Origin: Candidatus Magasanikiibacteriota bacterium
GTDB lineage: Bacteria; Patescibacteriota; Patescibacteriia; Magasanikbacterales; GWA2-37-8
Length of the DNA: 64,000 nt
Direction: 5' to 3'
NCBI GenBank assembly: GCA_030650025.1
Contig: JAUSEN010000015.1
Span: forward strand, 13,728 to 77,727
Every line of letters starts with the position of its first letter. Positions within the stretch are counted from its first letter, which is position 1. Positions 25,184 through 63,427 of the stretch are shown one piece after another. The position numbers were made by a program, and so were the translations under genes. The notes beneath the pieces are model-generated. The model worked only from the letters and a program-made list of their open reading frames with translations. It was not told where the DNA came from and ran no database searches.

Positions 25184-26632
25184 ATGATCAAAAACATCAT
25201 TTTCGACTGGTCTGGAGTCGTCAATAATAACTTCGCACAATCATGTGAAGCGGTTAATTATGTGTTGCGGCATTTTAACGTCCCTGCCATGACTCTCGAG
25301 GAAATCAAGGCCGACTGGATTCAGCCTTATATGCTGTTTTATTCGGCTCGCATTCCGCATTTAGATATCGAAAAAGAAAAAGAATTATTTTATCTTTCTT
25401 ACAACGAAGCTATTAAAACCACTCCCAATACGGCTTTTGCGGGCATGCCCGAGATGTTAAAACTTTTTCAAGCCGCCGGACTAAATATGATAATTATTTC
25501 GAGCGACCATCCGGGGACGCTGGCGGACGATCTCGACAAATTTGGCCTCAACGGGGTTTTTAACGAAGTATTTGCCGATGTTCATGATAAGCGCGTCGGG
25601 CTCCAAGATATAATGACCAAACACAATTTTAAAAATTCTGAAACTGTTTTTATCGGCGACTCGACGCACGAAGTTGAATCCGGCCAAAGCGCCAACATGT
25701 TAACTTGCGCCGTCACCTGGGGGTTCCAAAATAAAGATAAACTACTCGCCGCGCGCCCGGATTTTTTAGCTGAATCAGTCGCGGAATTAAAAAATATTAT
25801 TCTTCACCGCCACGCCCCGGCCACCAATGTTTTGGGTGTTCGCGTCAGCTTGCTCGATCAAACCACTGCTTTGCGGATAGCCAGCAATTATTTAAAATCT
25901 AACTACCAGTATCATATTTTTACCCCGAACCCTGAAATGCTCGTCAAAGCCGCCTCTGATCATTATTTTCGTGACATTCTCAACACCGGCAACCTGAATT
26001 TATGCGATGGCTTCGGCTTGTGGCTGGCGCTCAAGCTATCCTCGTTCAAATTGTCATTTCGACCGGAGTCCGGACAAAGTCCGGACGGAGTGGAGAAATC
26101 TAGTGCGCGTATCACCGGCGTCGATTTCATGTTCGACTTATGCGCTCTCGCCGCGCGCGAGAATAAAAAAATATTTTTACTTGGCTCTGGTAATAGGGAA
26201 GTGGCTAGTAAAACAAAAGACGCTCTGCAATCAAAATTCCCTAAACTTAATATTATTGGTGTTCATCCTTGGCTGACTATCACAGAAGATGTGGTAACTG
26301 GCAAATTGATCTTAAACGAACTCGAAAATACGCGCCTTCTTGAAGAAATCAAATCCGCCAGCCCGGACATTTTATTTGTCGCCTTTGGCATGGGCAAGCA
26401 AGAAAAATGGATTCACGAATATGCCACGCAAATACCAAGCCTTAAAATTGCCATGGGTGTGGGCGGGGCGTTTGATTATATCTCTGGCAAAATTCCCCGC
26501 GCGCCTAGACTAATGCGCAAAGTTGGGCTAGAATGGCTGTATCGTTTAATCCGCGAACCTCGCCGGGCAGGACGGATTTTTAACGCAACTATTAAATTTT
26601 TATACTATGTTGGAAAGGGATCCGGTAAATGA
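25184..26632 (+). CDS. fusion protein: HAD-superfamily hydrolase domain + WecG/TagA/CpsF (GT26) glycosyltransferase domain
   Basis: N-terminus IIFDWSGVV (HAD motif I with DxS), ...FIGDS motif; C-terminal GT26 region (VLGVRVSLLDQTTALRIA, NLCDGFGLWLALKL, IFLLGSGN, MGKQEKWI); contains a 20-aa insert encoded by palindromic element D. Confidence 0.7.
   Translation: MIKNIIFDWSGVVNNNFAQSCEAVNYVLRHFNVPAMTLEEIKADWIQPYMLFYSARIPHLDIEKEKELFYLSYNEAIKTTPNTAFAGMPEMLKLFQAAGLNMIIISSDHPGTLADDLDKFGLNGVFNEVFADVHDKRVGLQDIMTKHNFKNSETVFIGDSTHEVESGQSANMLTCAVTWGFQNKDKLLAARPDFLAESVAELKNIILHRHAPATNVLGVRVSLLDQTTALRIASNYLKSNYQYHIFTPNPEMLVKAASDHYFRDILNTGNLNLCDGFGLWLALKLSSFKLSFRPESGQSPDGVEKSSARITGVDFMFDLCALAARENKKIFLLGSGNREVASKTKDALQSKFPKLNIIGVHPWLTITEDVVTGKLILNELENTRLLEEIKSASPDILFVAFGMGKQEKWIHEYATQIPSLKIAMGVGGAFDYISGKIPRAPRLMRKVGLEWLYRLIREPRRAGRIFNATIKFLYYVGKGSGK
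26048..26103. repeat. palindromic element D (short member of TTGTCATT-terminated family) inserted in-frame in GT26 domain
   Basis: AAATTGTCATTTCGACC + GGAGTCCGGACAAAGTCCGGAC palindromes + GAGAAATCT; shares left terminus and AATCT motif with element A at 49268. Confidence 0.45.
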
Positions 26633-27173
26633 ACAACCAAAAAGACTCATTGTTGAAGTTGGGTCAGGAGGTGTCTCGGCGTTGAGTTTAGGAACACGGG
26701 GTAAAAAAGATGACGAAGTATTTGTTAGTCTTGATTTAGATCCAAATCAGGTTAGAGATGAAAAAGATGCCCATGTAATTGTAGCTGATGGGACAAACTT
26801 ACCGTTTGCCGATAAGTGTGTCGATGAATTAATTTATACTAATGTTTTTGGAGACCACCATCTTCAAAAGCCGGAGAAAATGTTAACAGAGGCGCAACGC
26901 GTGCTTAAACCAGAAGGATTTGTTTTTATTACTGAAACTTATACCCCGAAAAAAATGGCTCAAACACTCGGGGTCTCTTTACGGAGATCTGAATTGGAAA
27001 AACAAGGTCATATGAAATGGGAGTTAATAAAAGTAGACGATAGCGGTTTATTAGATTCTTCCGGATTCATTATTGATAGTTGGTCAGGCGCCCCAGACGA
27101 CGTGGCTCAATTTGAAAGATATTTCGGTAAACCATGGGGCGGTATTGCGATAAAACTAAAGAAAAAAAGTTAA
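26607..27173 (+). CDS. class I SAM-dependent methyltransferase (compositionally atypical)
   Basis: Motif I VEVGSGG, acidic loop, VADGTNLPFADKCVDELI (motif II/III region); lower GC and frequent AGA/GGA codons unlike neighbours; overlaps upstream gene by 26 nt. Confidence 0.6.
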   Translation: MLERDPVNEQPKRLIVEVGSGGVSALSLGTRGKKDDEVFVSLDLDPNQVRDEKDAHVIVADGTNLPFADKCVDELIYTNVFGDHHLQKPEKMLTEAQRVLKPEGFVFITETYTPKKMAQTLGVSLRRSELEKQGHMKWELIKVDDSGLLDSSGFIIDSWSGAPDDVAQFERYFGKPWGGIAIKLKKKS

Positions 27174-29151: not shown

Positions 29152-29170
29152 ACCTGATATTTTTAGTAGT

Positions 29171-29194
29171 AGGGGCATGATATATCATGCCCCT
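29171..29194. repeat. perfect 24-bp palindrome AGGGGCATGATATATCATGCCCCT downstream of gltX
   Basis: Read directly; preceded by ATATTTTTA; no clear U-tract on either side. Confidence 0.5.
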
Positions 29195-29238
29195 ACGGTA
29201 CGCTTTCAAGCCATAAAATATTATGCTATAATACCGCC

Positions 29239-47035: not shown

Positions 47036-47359
47036 TTAAAAAATTGGCTGCAGTGGAGCAAATTTTATATCTAAAACAATTCTCGTACCGAGGGCCTGTT
47101 CCAACTCGTTTAAAATTTGCTTTTTCTTGAGACGAATTTCCGCTGCCACCGCCGGTGAGGCCACACCCACTAATAGGACGCTGTTTTTAAAACAGATAAT
47201 ATTTAAATAATCTGGAATCAACTTGGGAAAATAATTTTCCAAAATTTGGTTAGCCTTCTCTACTACTAAGGCCGCTGTTACCTGGCGCGCCAAGGGTCTT
47301 TGGCCTTGCGAGCGGTCTTCTAAAATTTTTCTAATAGTCAAAAAACTCATACGCGCCAT
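47036..47359 (-). CDS. DUF721/DciA-like small protein
   Basis: 107 aa; pattern ...AALVVEKANQIL...NSVLLVGVASPAVAAEI... resembles DUF721 (by recall); overlaps start of helicase gene by 13 nt. Confidence 0.45.
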   Translation of the reverse strand: MARMSFLTIRKILEDRSQGQRPLARQVTAALVVEKANQILENYFPKLIPDYLNIICFKNSVLLVGVASPAVAAEIRLKKKQILNELEQALGTRIVLDIKFAPLQPIF

Positions 47360-50300
47360 TCACAAATATCCCGCCAATCGCAACGCGCGCAAACAAACTG
47401 GCTCGGCGTGGCCGTAAAATCACCCGTCATAATCTGGCTAATAGTCCCGGCTAATTTGGCTTTTAATTTCTCTAAATCTTTTGACTCGCCAATAAACGAC
47501 TGCTTAATTTCGTCATTTAAATAATAAAATGTTAATTTGCTCGGCTTACCAATATTTTTAAATTCAGAAATTTCGCCGACCGCAATTTGGTAGAGCAAAA
47601 GTTGTTCTTTGTCATCGCTCGTTAATTTGTCCTTGCTCTGGCCGGTTTTGTAATCAATAATTTCAATAGTGCCATCCGGCAGCTGGTCCAGCCGGTCGAT
47701 ACGACCATTCATCACATACTCCCCCACTTTAATTTTGAACCAGCTTTCAAGACCAATTGGGATGTTCCAATTGCCTTCCTCTGCACTATAAAAAACTTTA
47801 AGAATATCTTTGCCTTTTTTATACATATCTTCACGTTGGCGCTTGTTTTGGTACCAATCACTAATCCATTTGGCATCGTAGATTTTGAGAAGTTCGGCAA
47901 ATTCTGGGGCCTTAATAAGGCCATCTTTTTTGGCCACCGCTCGAGGCGGGGTATCAAATAAAGACACTTGTGAAGCGCTATTAAGCTCTTTTATTCGCTC
48001 ATAAAACGCCTGAAGAGTACTGTGCAGGCTAAGGCCAAAACTAAAACTGGCACTTCCCTTCATGGGAATACGGAGGATATGCGCGAGTTTATATTGATAC
48101 GGGCAGGTTTCGTAAGAGCGGAGCTGTGAGAAAGAAAAAGTTTTTGGCATTTCGTATTCGCCCGGCGCGGCCGGTTTAGCGCGTTCGGTTTTTTTAGGCA
48201 GTTCTATTTTTTTCTTGGCTTTATTTTCTGGCGCCACCAAACCAATCTCATCTAAAAAACGGCTGATTTTTTTAGCCCGAACGCCGCCGTAGTCAAAAGC
48301 ACTCGTAAAATAAAGGCGTTCTTTGGCGCGGGTCATGGCAACATAAAATAAACGTCGTTCTTCTTGCAGATGGCTGTCGCCCTCGGGGAGCTGTTCTTTT
48401 ACCAGGGGGTCGGGAATTTGCAAAGCTTCCGAGCGGCTCCGGGCCGGGAAACGGTCCTCGACTAGGTTTACCACAAATACATAGCGCCATTCTAGGCCTT
48501 TAGCCGCGTGCACCGTTAAAATATTAATCGACTCCGGTGTGTCGCTCGGCTGGTACAGACTACCTTTGTCGCCGGCTGCGACCACCATTAAAAAGTGCTC
48601 GATAAAATTATTAACGTGCGCGTCGGGCGTTATTGCCTCGTACTCCGCAATATAGTCAAAAAATTGTTTTAAATAGCGAATTTGGCGAATAACAGCGCCC
48701 ACCCCTTTGTTTTCTTGGTGCGTTAAGTATGTGAGATAGCCGCTATTTTCTAGGAAGTTATAGAGCACCACCGAAGGCTTGTCCGCGCGCGTAGCCTGAA
48801 GACCGGCGTGGATAATATCGATAAGTTTATTGCCAACCGCAACACCCGCTGGCGAAACGCCAAATTCGGCCGCGCGCTTAAGCGCCTCGTAGTAGGAAAT
48901 ACTTTTACGTTTTGCGCCACTAGTGATTTTTTGTAAATCATTTTCTTTAAATTCCAAAAATGGCAGGCAAAGCAGGCGGTATATGGCGCTCGACTCGTGG
49001 AAATTACTAAGCACTTTAAAAAAATTGACGCAATCAAGAATAATCGCCTGGCGATACAAGCCCGACGACGCCAAAAACTCGTAGGGAATGCCGCGGCTTT
49101 CAAAACCGTTAATAAACGCGTCCGCGTGGCTATTGGCGCGCACCAGAATCGCAAAATCGTCCCAGGTTATGTCTTCATTGGCATCTTTCAAACGCACGAT
49201 TTCTGTGAGCACGGCCGTGACTTCTTCTTCGGCAGTGGCTTTGTGTATGTGTGTTACCGTTCCCAAATTGTCATTCCGACCCGCCCTGGGCGGGGAGGAA
49301 TCTCTGTCCGTTCGCGGTCGCGAACGAGATTTCTCCCCGCCCGCCTGACTTGCATCAGCGTGTCGGGCAGGCTTCGTCGTCGAAATGACAGTTTTTTTAG
49401 CTATCAGTTTTTTATCGATTTTAAGTTTAACCTCCAGGCGGTCCGGGTTATTATTTTGAATGGACTTGTATGCAACATCAAGAATAGCTTGACCCGAGCG
49501 AAAGTTTTCCGAGAGCACCACTTCTTTAGCGTCTTGGTAATCGTCTTTAAAGCGCAGAATATTACTGACGCTGGCGCCGCGGAACGCGTAAATACTCTGG
49601 TCATCGTCCCCGACTACGGTGAGCTGCGATTTTTCGTCAGCCAGAAGCTTGATCAGCTCGTATTGCGCGTAGTTCACATCCTGGAACTCATCAACCAAAA
49701 TATATTTATACTTATTTTGGAATAGTTTTAAAATATTTGGCCGTTCGCGAAAAAGTTTAACCGTGTAAGAAAGCAAATCGCCAAAATCCATAAGCGCGCT
49801 ATCTCGGAGGAGCTGATTGTAAGTGTGGTACGCTAGAGCGAGCTCGGTCAGGCGATTCTTTTCTTCCCCGCCCAGGGCGCCGTTCTGATCTTTTTTGGTT
49901 CCCTCGGCATATTCCAGATATTCCTCGGGCGTAATCAGTTCGTCTTTGCACTTAGAGAAGTGCTTTAAAAATTCATGGATGTGTTTAGTAGGGTTACCGA
50001 GCGGGCGGTAATAATTTAAGTTAAATTTATCGAGGTTCTTCTGGATTAATATCCAACCGGCTGTGTCGGTTAAAAGCTTAAACGAATTGCTCAAACCAAT
50101 ATCAATGGCGTGATGCTCAAGAATTTTTTGGCAAAACGCGTGAAAAGTGGAGATGTGCAAATCCGCGTAGCCAACATTCGTAATTTCGTCCACCCGGGTC
50201 TGCATTTCCTCGGCGGCTTGGTCGGTAAATGTTAGAGCCAAAACTTCTTCGGGCTTGGCCAATTTCTCTTCAAGCAAACGGCAAATTTTGCTGGTGATAA

Positions 50301-50427
50301 CCGTCGTCTTCCCCGTGCCCGCGCCTGCCACAATCAAAAGCGGGCCGGCGACATATTCCACGGCTTCGCGCTGCGCTTTGTTTAATTTAAAATCCGGCAT
50401 ATATTTATCTCCCTTAATTTTTACCAT
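47347..50427 (-). CDS. UvrD/PcrA-type SF1 helicase with C-terminal PD-(D/E)xK (RecB-family) nuclease and Cys cluster
   Basis: Walker A AGAGTGKTTVI, UvrD motifs; C-terminal RIDRLDQLPDGTIEIIDYKTG nuclease motif and CARCDWRDIC; contains in-frame insert encoded by element A. Confidence 0.8.
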   Translation of the reverse strand: MVKIKGDKYMPDFKLNKAQREAVEYVAGPLLIVAGAGTGKTTVITSKICRLLEEKLAKPEEVLALTFTDQAAEEMQTRVDEITNVGYADLHISTFHAFCQKILEHHAIDIGLSNSFKLLTDTAGWILIQKNLDKFNLNYYRPLGNPTKHIHEFLKHFSKCKDELITPEEYLEYAEGTKKDQNGALGGEEKNRLTELALAYHTYNQLLRDSALMDFGDLLSYTVKLFRERPNILKLFQNKYKYILVDEFQDVNYAQYELIKLLADEKSQLTVVGDDDQSIYAFRGASVSNILRFKDDYQDAKEVVLSENFRSGQAILDVAYKSIQNNNPDRLEVKLKIDKKLIAKKTVISTTKPARHADASQAGGEKSRSRPRTDRDSSPPRAGRNDNLGTVTHIHKATAEEEVTAVLTEIVRLKDANEDITWDDFAILVRANSHADAFINGFESRGIPYEFLASSGLYRQAIILDCVNFFKVLSNFHESSAIYRLLCLPFLEFKENDLQKITSGAKRKSISYYEALKRAAEFGVSPAGVAVGNKLIDIIHAGLQATRADKPSVVLYNFLENSGYLTYLTHQENKGVGAVIRQIRYLKQFFDYIAEYEAITPDAHVNNFIEHFLMVVAAGDKGSLYQPSDTPESINILTVHAAKGLEWRYVFVVNLVEDRFPARSRSEALQIPDPLVKEQLPEGDSHLQEERRLFYVAMTRAKERLYFTSAFDYGGVRAKKISRFLDEIGLVAPENKAKKKIELPKKTERAKPAAPGEYEMPKTFSFSQLRSYETCPYQYKLAHILRIPMKGSASFSFGLSLHSTLQAFYERIKELNSASQVSLFDTPPRAVAKKDGLIKAPEFAELLKIYDAKWISDWYQNKRQREDMYKKGKDILKVFYSAEEGNWNIPIGLESWFKIKVGEYVMNGRIDRLDQLPDGTIEIIDYKTGQSKDKLTSDDKEQLLLYQIAVGEISEFKNIGKPSKLTFYYLNDEIKQSFIGESKDLEKLKAKLAGTISQIMTGDFTATPSQFVCARCDWRDICEWRV
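49268..49391. repeat. GC-rich nested-palindrome element A (MITE/RPE-like) inserted in-frame in helicase-nuclease gene
   Basis: Termini AATTGTCATTCCGAC / GTCGAAATGACAG (imperfect TIR); internal IRs CCCGCCC-tgg-GGGCGGG, GGCGGGGAGGAATCTC/GAGATTTCTCCCCGCC, GTTCGCGgtCGCGAAC; encodes low-complexity RHADASQAGGEKSRSRPRTDRDSSPPRAGRND. Confidence 0.5.
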
Positions 50428-62213: not shown

Positions 62214-62414
62214 TTAATCAAATAATACGGCTTGGTATAAAGAAAAACCAGTAATTACTACCAACCCCAAAAACACCATTGTTGGTAGCCATCGCGAACG
62301 CTTCCTAAAACGATGCATTATATCGTCAATAAGCAAAAAAATAAAGAACCACAATCCGGCAAACTGGAAAAAAAATAATAAAAATATGCCCATTATTTCC
62401 AACAATCTAGTCAT
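62214..62414 (-). CDS. hypothetical small membrane protein
   Basis: 66 aa, two hydrophobic helices; overlaps tatD start by 8 nt. Confidence 0.35.
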   Translation of the reverse strand: MTRLLEIMGIFLLFFFQFAGLWFFIFLLIDDIMHRFRKRSRWLPTMVFLGLVVITGFSLYQAVLFD

Positions 62415-63345
62415 TTAACTTAATTTTATTGAATAAATATAGGGCATTTTGCGTAGTGGCCTTAACAACTTCATCATAAGAAACACCGCGAATCTCCGCA
62501 ATTTTTCTGGCGGTAAACTCTACCATCCACGGCTCGCCTCGCTTTCCGCGATGAGGCACGGGTGACAGATACGGGCAATCAGTCTCAAGCAAGATTCTCT
62601 CGAGCGGCATTTTCGCCACCACTTCTAGTAAATCTGCTTGCGCTTGTGGATTTTTTTTAAGCGGCGGAAAGGTGATCACGCCAGTAAAACCAATATAAAA
62701 CCCCATCGCTAAATACTTTTGCGCGTTTTCCCAATTGCTCGTATAGCAGTGAATCGTGCCGGTAAGCGGTGAGACCCCACCCTCGCCCTCCCCTTTGCGA
62801 AGGGGAGGGGAATCGTCGTCCCCCCTCCTTTGCAAAGGAGGGGGGAGGGGGAGGTCTCGCGTCGCATCTTGTAAAATTTCGATCAACTCCTCATGCGCCT
62901 CGCGGCAATGTATCACCATTGGTAAGTTTGTTTCTTTGGCAAGCCTAATATGCTCTAAAAAAACCTGCCTTTGCTTGGGTAGCATTTGCTCTTTACTTAG
63001 GCCCTCGGGAATTCGATAAAAATCCAAGCCGCATTCCCCTATCCCGATTACTTTCTCGCTCGCGCAAAGTTTTTTATAATATTCAAAATTAAATTCTTCT
63101 TCTCTTGATAAAAATGAAGTTTCTTCTTCATCCACAAACTTGCTAAACAAATGCTCGGGGTGGAGCCCAACGCTCGCAAAGACATTTTTAAAGCGCTCGG
63201 CCACTTCCACGGCCCTCTTACTAGTATCACTCTGGGTGCCGACCAAATTTATCACCACATTTTTGGATAAACTGCGTTTAATAACCTCGTCTGAATCAGC
63301 CTGATAGGCATTAAAATGCGCGTGGGCATGAGTGTCAAAAAGCAT
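62407..63345 (-). CDS. tatD: TatD-family metal-dependent hydrolase/DNase with in-frame low-complexity insert
   Basis: MLFDTHAHAHF N-terminus, GECGLDF, VIHCREAHE, IHCYTSNW, ETDCPYL motifs; about 30-aa Pro/Gly-rich insert encoded by element B. Confidence 0.85.
   Translation of the reverse strand: MLFDTHAHAHFNAYQADSDEVIKRSLSKNVVINLVGTQSDTSKRAVEVAERFKNVFASVGLHPEHLFSKFVDEEETSFLSREEEFNFEYYKKLCASEKVIGIGECGLDFYRIPEGLSKEQMLPKQRQVFLEHIRLAKETNLPMVIHCREAHEELIEILQDATRDLPLPPPLQRRGDDDSPPLRKGEGEGGVSPLTGTIHCYTSNWENAQKYLAMGFYIGFTGVITFPPLKKNPQAQADLLEVVAKMPLERILLETDCPYLSPVPHRGKRGEPWMVEFTARKIAEIRGVSYDEVVKATTQNALYLFNKIKLND
62771..62858. repeat. GC-rich nested-palindrome element B inserted in-frame in tatD
   Basis: Hairpins CCCTCCCCTT-tgcg-AAGGGGAGGG and CCCCCCTCCTTT-gc-AAAGGAGGGGGG flanked by GAGACC...GGTCTC; encodes DLPLPPPLQRRGDDDSPPLRKGEGEGGVSP. 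Confidence 0.45.
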
Positions 63346-63352
63346 AATTATT

Positions 63353-63427
63353 CTGTCATCTTGAGCGTAGCGAAAGATCTAAGCGAAACGCTTGCCTTAG
63401 ATTCTTCGCTCCGCTCAGAATGACAAT
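63353..63427. repeat. intergenic palindromic element C (TTGTCAT...ATGACAA family member)
   Basis: CTGTCATCTTGAGCGTAGCGAAAGATCTAAG ... CTTAGATTCTTCGCTCCGCTCAGAATGACAATT imperfect 30-bp inverted repeat between cvpA-like gene and tatD. Confidence 0.45.

Follow-up and report, generated by a model that had tools for sequence, protein, structure and literature searches.

A 64,000-nucleotide stretch of contig JAUSEN010000015.1 (Candidatus Magasanikiibacteriota bacterium, assembly GCA_030650025.1), referred to here as the window, carries a gene for a GT26 (WecG/TagA/CpsF) glycosyltransferase that contains, within its reading frame, a short hairpin-forming DNA segment. We consider it very likely that this segment, which we call the half module, is an immobile relic, the left arm of a TGTCAT...ATGACA palindrome resembling the Rickettsia palindromic elements (RPEs), tolerated in a permissive loop of the enzyme. 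In the history that we propose, a full palindromic copy would have entered, or been inherited in, the DNA for the H4-H5 loop of a TagA-like protein. Asymmetric deletion would then have removed the right arm, and with it the long palindrome, leaving a 54-nt module that is translated within a 22-residue loop extension and can no longer move. Long palindromes are unstable, and asymmetric deletion is a well-known form of this instability; we infer that insertion came first and arm deletion second. In related Magasanikbacteria the same loop has been occupied repeatedly, by elements that differ in subfamily and in the frame in which they are read.

The DNA at 26048-26103 reads AAATTGTCATTTCGACCGGAGTCCGGACAAAGTCCGGACGGAGTGGAGAAATCTAG. 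Its first 17 nucleotides (26048-26064), AAATTGTCATTYCGACC, are an exact instance of the left terminus (AAA)TTGTCATTYCGACC of the TGTCAT...ATGACA family. The 17-mer recurs without mismatch at 49265-49281, the left end of a full two-armed copy termed element A, and with 2 mismatches on the minus strand at 49378-49394, the right end of the same element. When up to 3 mismatches are allowed, the window holds 6 matches, where 0.54 would be expected and none of 100 shuffles reaches 6. The core motif GGAGRAATCT, which lies downstream of the terminus, occurs three times in the 64 kb against an expectation of 0.21, each time within the half module or element A. The copies can be aligned, as the original prediction anticipated: in a MAFFT alignment the half module pairs with one arm of element A, and element C, a member of a related subfamily, matches more loosely. 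With the modular matches found outside the window, these results support the claim that the half module and element A belong to one family.

The segment had been described as a shorter copy from the family of element A. It is a copy, but a truncated half element rather than a short complete one. Only the left arm is present, comprising a terminus, a hairpin cassette and a core (Table 1). No second inverted arm ending ...GTCGRAATGACA follows; the right terminus ATGACA is found neither in the loop nor in the flank, and the codons directly 3' of the core, AGT GCG CGT, encode S-A-R309. It is because this terminus is missing that we class the half module as a truncated member of the family. Of two palindromes proposed within it, GTCCGGAC-AAA-GTCCGGAC is indeed a perfect hairpin, with an 8-bp stem and an AAA loop at an offset of 3 from the terminus, and it represents the variable cassette that family members may carry at a fixed offset. 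The other, GAGAAATCT, is not palindromic by itself; in the RNA fold, ATTTC in the terminus is the pairing partner of its GAAAT, matching the pairing of the family core with ATTYC. The fold of this small module has an energy of -19.8 kcal/mol (z -3.0). A scan of the window for further half modules with a 6-nt stem returned only element A, element C and the GT26 copy.

The element was correctly placed in frame within the GT26 domain (open reading frame (ORF) 25184-26632, PF03808). Membership of the GT26 family is clear from Pfam, with PF03808 matching at 1.8e-48 (165 bits, cut-off 27.4) and the N-terminal HAD domain, PF13419, at 2e-19. The closest solved structure is that of Thermoanaerobacter TagA (7mpk, E 7.5e-36), whose residues T37, N39, D65, R83, Q167 and R214/R221/R224 align to T247, N249, D275, R309, Q406 and R454/R461/R464. 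In an alignment of 113 GT26 homologs these positions are invariant save R309, which is nearly so (at least 90%). D65 and the C-terminal tail arginines are catalytic in TagA (PMC8784642), and D275, R454, R461 and R464 are their counterparts here. The insert falls between the catalytic D275 (26006-26008) and the conserved R309 (26108-26110). A 20-residue insert, S287-S306, had been proposed, which is close: the alignment gives 22 residues, L285-S306, of which K289-S306 (26048-26101) are encoded by the element. Aligned to 7mpk, the window protein shows a gap exactly at the insert, between TagA residues 73 and 82. TagA residues 74-82 form the mobile H4-H5 loop, on which the tail helix H10' packs in the closed, substrate-bound state (PMC8784642).

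The original prediction took this for a short conserved loop. Although about half of the homologs have a short loop here, no other site of the GT26 domain varies as much, and it is an insertion hot spot beside the active site. The segment aligned to query residues 281-311 has at most 11 residues in 50 of the 113 homologs and at least 25 in 37; the query has 31. Inserts of at least 6 residues are almost confined to two sites, one after residue 285 (52 of 113 homologs) and one after residue 373 (window about 26300-26310; 54 segments in 53 sequences). As had been expected, the multiple alignment shows that the insert is not general in GT26 proteins, being absent from most homologs and from the solved TagA. 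Inserts at the second site include palindrome-type peptides (YRGGSDAATSVVNVSPPIRGR, FAQCKLR... and ...DPRLHGDDS), and the window protein is modestly extended there.

About 29 of the inserts in the first loop contain translations of the TGTCAT terminus, read in three frames as LSFRP/LSSRAK/SSRAK, VIPSEA/VIQSEAKNL and CHSERSEES/CHPER. They often end in ...(G/R)MT, at a varying distance from the ERI(T)GVD motif, and the DNA of the loci confirms elements in all three frames (Table 1). The ClpB(-)/GT26(+)/gltX(+) neighbourhood is retained in other Magasanikbacteria contigs, and we therefore regard the GT26 genes of those contigs as orthologs. Two homologs, P0071 and P0100, share 86% identity once the two variable loops are set aside, yet their elements are different and lie in different frames. 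P0030, whose loop is filled, and P0059, whose loop is empty, are 85% identical outside the variable loops, with about 105 extra bases between flanks that align. In P0032, P0049 and P0064 the same loop is filled by CCTCC/GGAGG hairpins of an unrelated family, and the closest relatives of these proteins are short-looped, as were most homologs returned by a scan of genome contigs for GT26 loci. Recurrent occupancy among orthologs shows that the loop has been filled many times; it has probably been emptied many times as well. The many copies elsewhere and the filled and empty sites among close orthologs support the view that the behaviour of the family is that of DNA which is mobile or has been acquired repeatedly, in keeping with the mobile palindromic element that had been postulated.

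Table 1. Features of the window and states of the H4-H5 loop in related loci
Feature	Position	Strand	Description
Host gene, 482 aa	25184..26632	+	HAD phosphatase-like domain (residues 5-177) fused to GT26 WecG/TagA/CpsF domain (residues 271-465)
Alignment-defined insert L285-S306, 22 aa	26036..26101	+	H4-H5 loop; 113-sequence alignment, gap relative to TagA
Half module (left arm only)	26048..26101	+	Element-derived, translated as KLSFRPESGQSPDGVEKS; layout recurs in metagenome copies
Left terminal repeat TTGTCATTTCGACC	26051..26064	+	Exact match to element A termini and to loop elements of L001, L002 and L211
Variable hairpin cassette GTCCGGAC-AAA-GTCCGGAC	26068..26086	+	Perfect hairpin
Core motif GGAGAAATCT	26092..26101	+	GAAAT-ATTTC pairing with the terminus closes the half module
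Element A	49265..49394		Full two-armed copy, in frame in UvrD-like helicase (ORF 47347..50427, minus strand)
Element C	63353..63427		75-nt full copy of related subfamily (TGTCATYYTGAGCG...), intergenic between TatD-like and CvpA-like genes
Loop of L002, L211			Full SFRP-type element, the window's subtype (TTGTCATTTCGACC...GTCGGGATGACAA)
Loop of L001, L007			Left half alone, as in the window
Loop of L085			Full element, frame b
Loop of L086, L209			Full elements, frame c
Loop of L087			Terminus remnant (AAATTGTCATCTCGAC...), then a second complete element

It could be argued that all of this goes back to a single invasion, in the ancestor of the 'GLWLA' subgroup of Magasanikbacteria GT26 proteins, and that the inserts have since diverged through insertions, deletions and gene conversion from other copies. 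Nearly all occupied loops do belong to homologs with the GFGLWLA motif, and the window protein clusters near P0004 and P0036, which share its SFRP-type left end. The closest homolog, P0003, may add to this: its loop (L004, 10850-10900) has an A-rich part encoding KKKKEKRK and ends in ATTATGACC (IMT), possibly what is left of the right terminus (...ATGACA) of an element lost there. We nevertheless consider a single invasion unlikely. The inserts occupy three frames, with different junctions on the left and right and subfamily differences in both arms, and filled and empty loops occur in proteins 85% identical outside the variable loops. The unrelated CCTCC hairpins sit in the same loop of other relatives, and a neighbour-joining tree, itself weakly supported, mixes occupied with short-looped sequences.

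Beyond the window, the pattern TGTCATTTCGACC-N4-34-GGAGAAATC is found in at least 120 metagenome contigs (GC 0.33-0.68) and in 27 viral contigs of IMG/VR, and the metagenome matches listed span many phyla and GC contents. The order terminus, G[GA]AG, variable hairpin, NNAG and GGAGAAATC is seen again in metagenome copies; full elements follow the plan terminus, core, central loop, core', terminus'. Among the matches listed are 134 metagenome copies, with 70 minimal halves of 26 nt and others of 27-55 nt. A perfect hairpin of at least 5 bp stands at the fixed offset in 19 of the 54 long halves listed, with 17 different stems and loops of 3-6 nt, mostly 3-4. The cassette of the window fits this layout exactly, and one copy, L145 (TGTCATTTCGACCGGAGTCCCGACTTGTCGGGACGAAGCGGAGAAATCT), is its near twin. 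The internal palindrome is a regular module of the family, hypervariable yet always paired.

Most copies are intergenic. Among the matches listed, open frames of 300 codons or more enclose just 4 of 63 full copies and 12 of 71 half copies, compared with 49% of random segments. These counts are upper bounds, long open frames in high-GC contigs being mostly spurious. In the Magasanikbacteria genomes, however, in-frame copies are frequent outside this loop too: element A lies in a helicase, and three of the five full copies in L085, a metagenome-assembled genome (MAG; GCA_009694865.1), are in frame, two in PriA and one in GT26. The PriA copies, at 564-676 and 1642-1729, are complete TGTCAT-family elements, and the same 15-kb stretch holds two more that are intergenic. 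Some of the predicted viral contigs (L212-L238) carry 4-5 copies, and in two of them (L228, 5767-8507; L224, 11487-14227) copies 2741 bp apart enclose a tape-measure-like gene. Phages may help to spread the family.

The frequency of half modules invites a different reading, in which the unit that is mobile or templated would be the half itself, with two-armed elements as its head-to-head dimers and no deletion here. By our right-arm criterion, 71 of the 134 metagenome copies listed have no recognisable right terminus, a classification that is approximate and a count that is inflated, a diverged right arm (...AGATCCCTC...) following many of the 'half' calls. Three independent orthologs, those of the window, L001 and L007, retain exactly the left half, ending at the core, and the half module folds on its own, with the z score given above. 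The arms of element A are asymmetric, as though built from different halves. We think this quite unlikely all the same: the orthologs L002 and L211 have the full palindrome, with the same terminus in the same place, and long palindromes are well known to undergo asymmetric deletion.

Structure prediction had been proposed as a way to see whether the insert is a surface loop. The AlphaFold2 model, built from the 113-sequence alignment, predicts a helix (277-291), a coil (292-311) and a second helix (312-325), so that the insert would be a helix extension followed by a low-confidence, disordered coil in the H4-H5 loop. Elsewhere in the GT26 domain the predicted local distance difference test score (pLDDT) exceeds 90, whereas residues 291-300 score 58, and the predicted fold is otherwise intact, as indicated by Foldseek superposition of the model on TagA 5wb4 (template modelling score 0.94, root-mean-square deviation 2.0 Å). 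With catalytic residues, synteny and predicted fold all retained, the enzyme, whose function had been called into question, is probably still functional, and we infer that the insert is near-neutral and tolerated.

A more active role for the insert can be imagined. The peptide might modulate docking of the C-terminal tail or association with the membrane, or the hairpin might regulate expression as mRNA or DNA. The packing of H10' on the H4-H5 loop of substrate-bound TagA (PMC8784642) and the perfect hairpin stem lend this some appeal. It is improbable, however, given that the sequence, length and frame of the occupant vary freely among close orthologs, many of which have no insert, which is the pattern of a neutral passenger, and given the low pLDDT of the insert.

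It is hardly credible that chance or low complexity produced the resemblance, or that the segment is an assembly chimera, for although the copy is short and has only two strong relatives within the window, its terminus and core matches far exceed expectation, it matches many external copies module by module, the frame is kept, and orthologous loci of independent assemblies show the same kind of insert. An intein or intron was also considered and rejected: the segment is too short and lacks matching motifs, and its reading frame is unbroken.

We return to the relic of a palindromic element and to how it came to lie in this loop. In three orthologs the left half adjoins the conserved ERI/ARI motif that contains R309, so that deletions reaching further would presumably be lethal. 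At nearly all other sites of the protein, insertions are probably eliminated by selection. Since two permissive loops hold nearly all surviving inserts, unrelated families included, the hot spot would most simply reflect a selective filter and not targeting. Target preference may also play a part, as may homing to earlier copies, of which the serial occupants in L087 could be an example.

Several observations weigh against the relic and the history proposed for it. The four residues ahead of the element, L285-F288, have no explained origin. Because H10' of TagA contacts the H4-H5 loop in the closed state, neutrality of the insert is not assured. The NCBI database holds an identical protein from a Candidatus Magasanikbacteria MAG, and the next relative is 59% identical; with no near-identical genome carrying an empty site, the insertion event is neither observed nor datable. 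Half modules are common enough (the 71 of 134 above) that the half could be a unit in its own right. Target-site duplications are not evident: in 61 non-redundant full copies among the matches listed, direct repeats of 2-5 nt at nine boundary offsets were nowhere well above expectation. In 2.5 Mb of loci, termini 0.5-4 kb apart enclose phage or housekeeping genes and no transposase, and the pair 2741 bp apart in two viral contigs likewise has the tape-measure-like ORF inside, not a transposase. No other mark of a mobilisation mechanism was found.

The family did not match reference collections. No credible Rfam family emerged when the window was scanned at the gathering threshold, or when element A and the GT26 copy were scanned permissively, and five insert peptides matched no NCBIfam model at E<=10, in a library that presumably includes models of RPE domains. 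Our search of the literature on palindromic, in-frame or miniature inverted-repeat transposable elements, hereafter MITEs, in Patescibacteria, also known as the Candidate Phyla Radiation (CPR), and on the terminus sequences found no description of the family, although its coverage was incomplete and this is not proof of absence.

Comparison with known systems places the family nearest in kind to RPEs, MITEs and repetitive extragenic palindromic (REP) sequences, while it is distinct from each. As a review sums them up (Ogata et al. 2000, per PMC10969869), RPEs are small palindromes of a reduced-genome bacterium, found between genes and in frame in unrelated housekeeping genes, translated, compatible with the host fold and without a known transposase. 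The present repeat is likewise in frame in unrelated genes with compatible folds (GT26 and the helicase in the window, PriA and GT26 in L085). It has no sequence relationship to RPEs, its insert peptides matching no NCBIfam family, and its host belongs to the Patescibacteria. Its elements are shorter (26 nt to about 130 nt), modular and equipped with a hypervariable hairpin cassette, and they extend across many phyla and GC contents and have struck the same loop repeatedly, in three frames.

MITEs such as Correia, ERIC and Nezha (PMC10969869) resemble the family in being non-coding, 50-300 nt long and bounded by terminal inverted repeats, with many copies, some of them occasionally intragenic and in frame. 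Unlike them, the 61 full copies listed show no target-site duplication, and the entire element is a hairpin rather than two short terminal inverted repeats around unrelated DNA. In the 2.5 Mb of loci, with no public collection searched for it, no cognate insertion sequence was found between termini 0.5-4 kb apart. REP sequences and the bacterial interspersed mosaic elements (BIMEs) that they form, mobilised by IS200/IS605-like REP-associated tyrosine transposases (RAYTs; PMC3733652), are also short, imperfect hairpin palindromes whose stems vary with pairing kept, mostly extragenic and without target duplication. Their heads are GTAG or CGTC, whereas the present family has TGTCAT; typical REPs are single hairpins of 20-40 nt, and the GT26 copy is intragenic. 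No RAYT gene was identified, though no search of the window's proteins aimed at transposases was made. Finally, the coding palindromes of Nematomorpha mitochondria are inverted repeats within coding sequence that are translated (PMC6649704); they are organellar, far longer and perfect, with no evidence of a family dispersed over many genomes.

As target duplications are lacking and the stems vary while staying paired, we conjecture that what moves the family is an enzyme that recognises structure, of the REP/RAYT or HUH kind, and not a DDE transposase. A bolder proposal, which we hold to be doubtful, is that CPR bacteria harbour an RPE-like system not described before. Its element, a modular hairpin with conserved TGTCAT ends and a hypervariable, always paired cassette, would recurrently enter one and the same stretch of loop-coding DNA in essential genes, by true target preference or by homing to earlier copies, the latter hinted at by the serial occupants in L087. 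If this were so, the system would be building lineage-specific peptide loops beside the active site of TagA-like enzymes, and its conserved scaffold and covarying stem would point to mobilisation machinery that recognises structure, or to a functional RNA.

Taken alone, the GT26 copy is an ordinary immobile relic of modest consequence. In a broader context, translated palindromes in housekeeping proteins, best known from Rickettsia, extend to a second reduced-genome lineage, the CPR Magasanikbacteria. The family is a different and far more widespread one, and a single loop of one enzyme has been colonised over and over, in all three frames, with no fewer than two unrelated hairpin families involved. 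Such loops amount to a natural experiment that could show where proteins accept random peptides and how, in minimal genomes, selfish DNA can add protein sequence. On a practical note, inserts of this kind inflate and fragment alignments of CPR proteins and create spurious 'hypothetical' ORFs.

The host domain is like the TagA/TarA GT26 enzyme of Thermoanaerobacter italicus (5wb4, 7mpk; PMC6493773, PMC8784642) in fold, catalytic residues and tail arginines, and differs in its N-terminal HAD domain, the 22-residue H4-H5 insert and a second loop 11 residues longer. The fusion of HAD to GT26 is seen in the window (25184-25820), P0002 and P0003. In L087 (2084-2713) the HAD domain is a separate gene directly upstream, which points to a recent fusion of the two genes within Magasanikbacteria. 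The next ORF in the window (26607..27173; 188 aa), to which no family is assigned, shares 26 nt (26607-26632) with the 3' end of the GT26 gene, and the syntenic ORF downstream of GT26 in other loci has a weak match to Methyltransf_11 or, in L004 and L085, none.

Other palindromes of the window deserve mention. Element A (RNA fold -75.9 kcal/mol, z -8.0) has unequal arms, one of them with an additional cassette of about 34 nt, GCCTGCCCGACACGCTGATGCAAGTCAGGCGGGC (minus strand), in the position that the hairpin cassette occupies in the GT26 copy; cassettes can thus differ between the two arms of one element. Element C folds at -37.9 kcal/mol (z -7.5). The TatD-like ORF 62407..63345 contains an in-frame palindromic insert of a second kind, in which two CCCCTCC...GGAGGGG hairpins (62790-62850, minus strand) encode PLPPPLQRRGDDDSPPLRKGEGEGG, and hairpins of this type, CCCCCTCTGCCCGAGAGGGGG and CCTCCTCTTGGTAAGAGGAGG, are found in the GT26 loop of P0032 (L208). 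A perfect 28-nt palindrome, GTAGGGGCATGATA/TATCATGCCCCTAC, at 29169-29196, 18 nt past the gltX stop codon, may be a terminator or another type of repeat.

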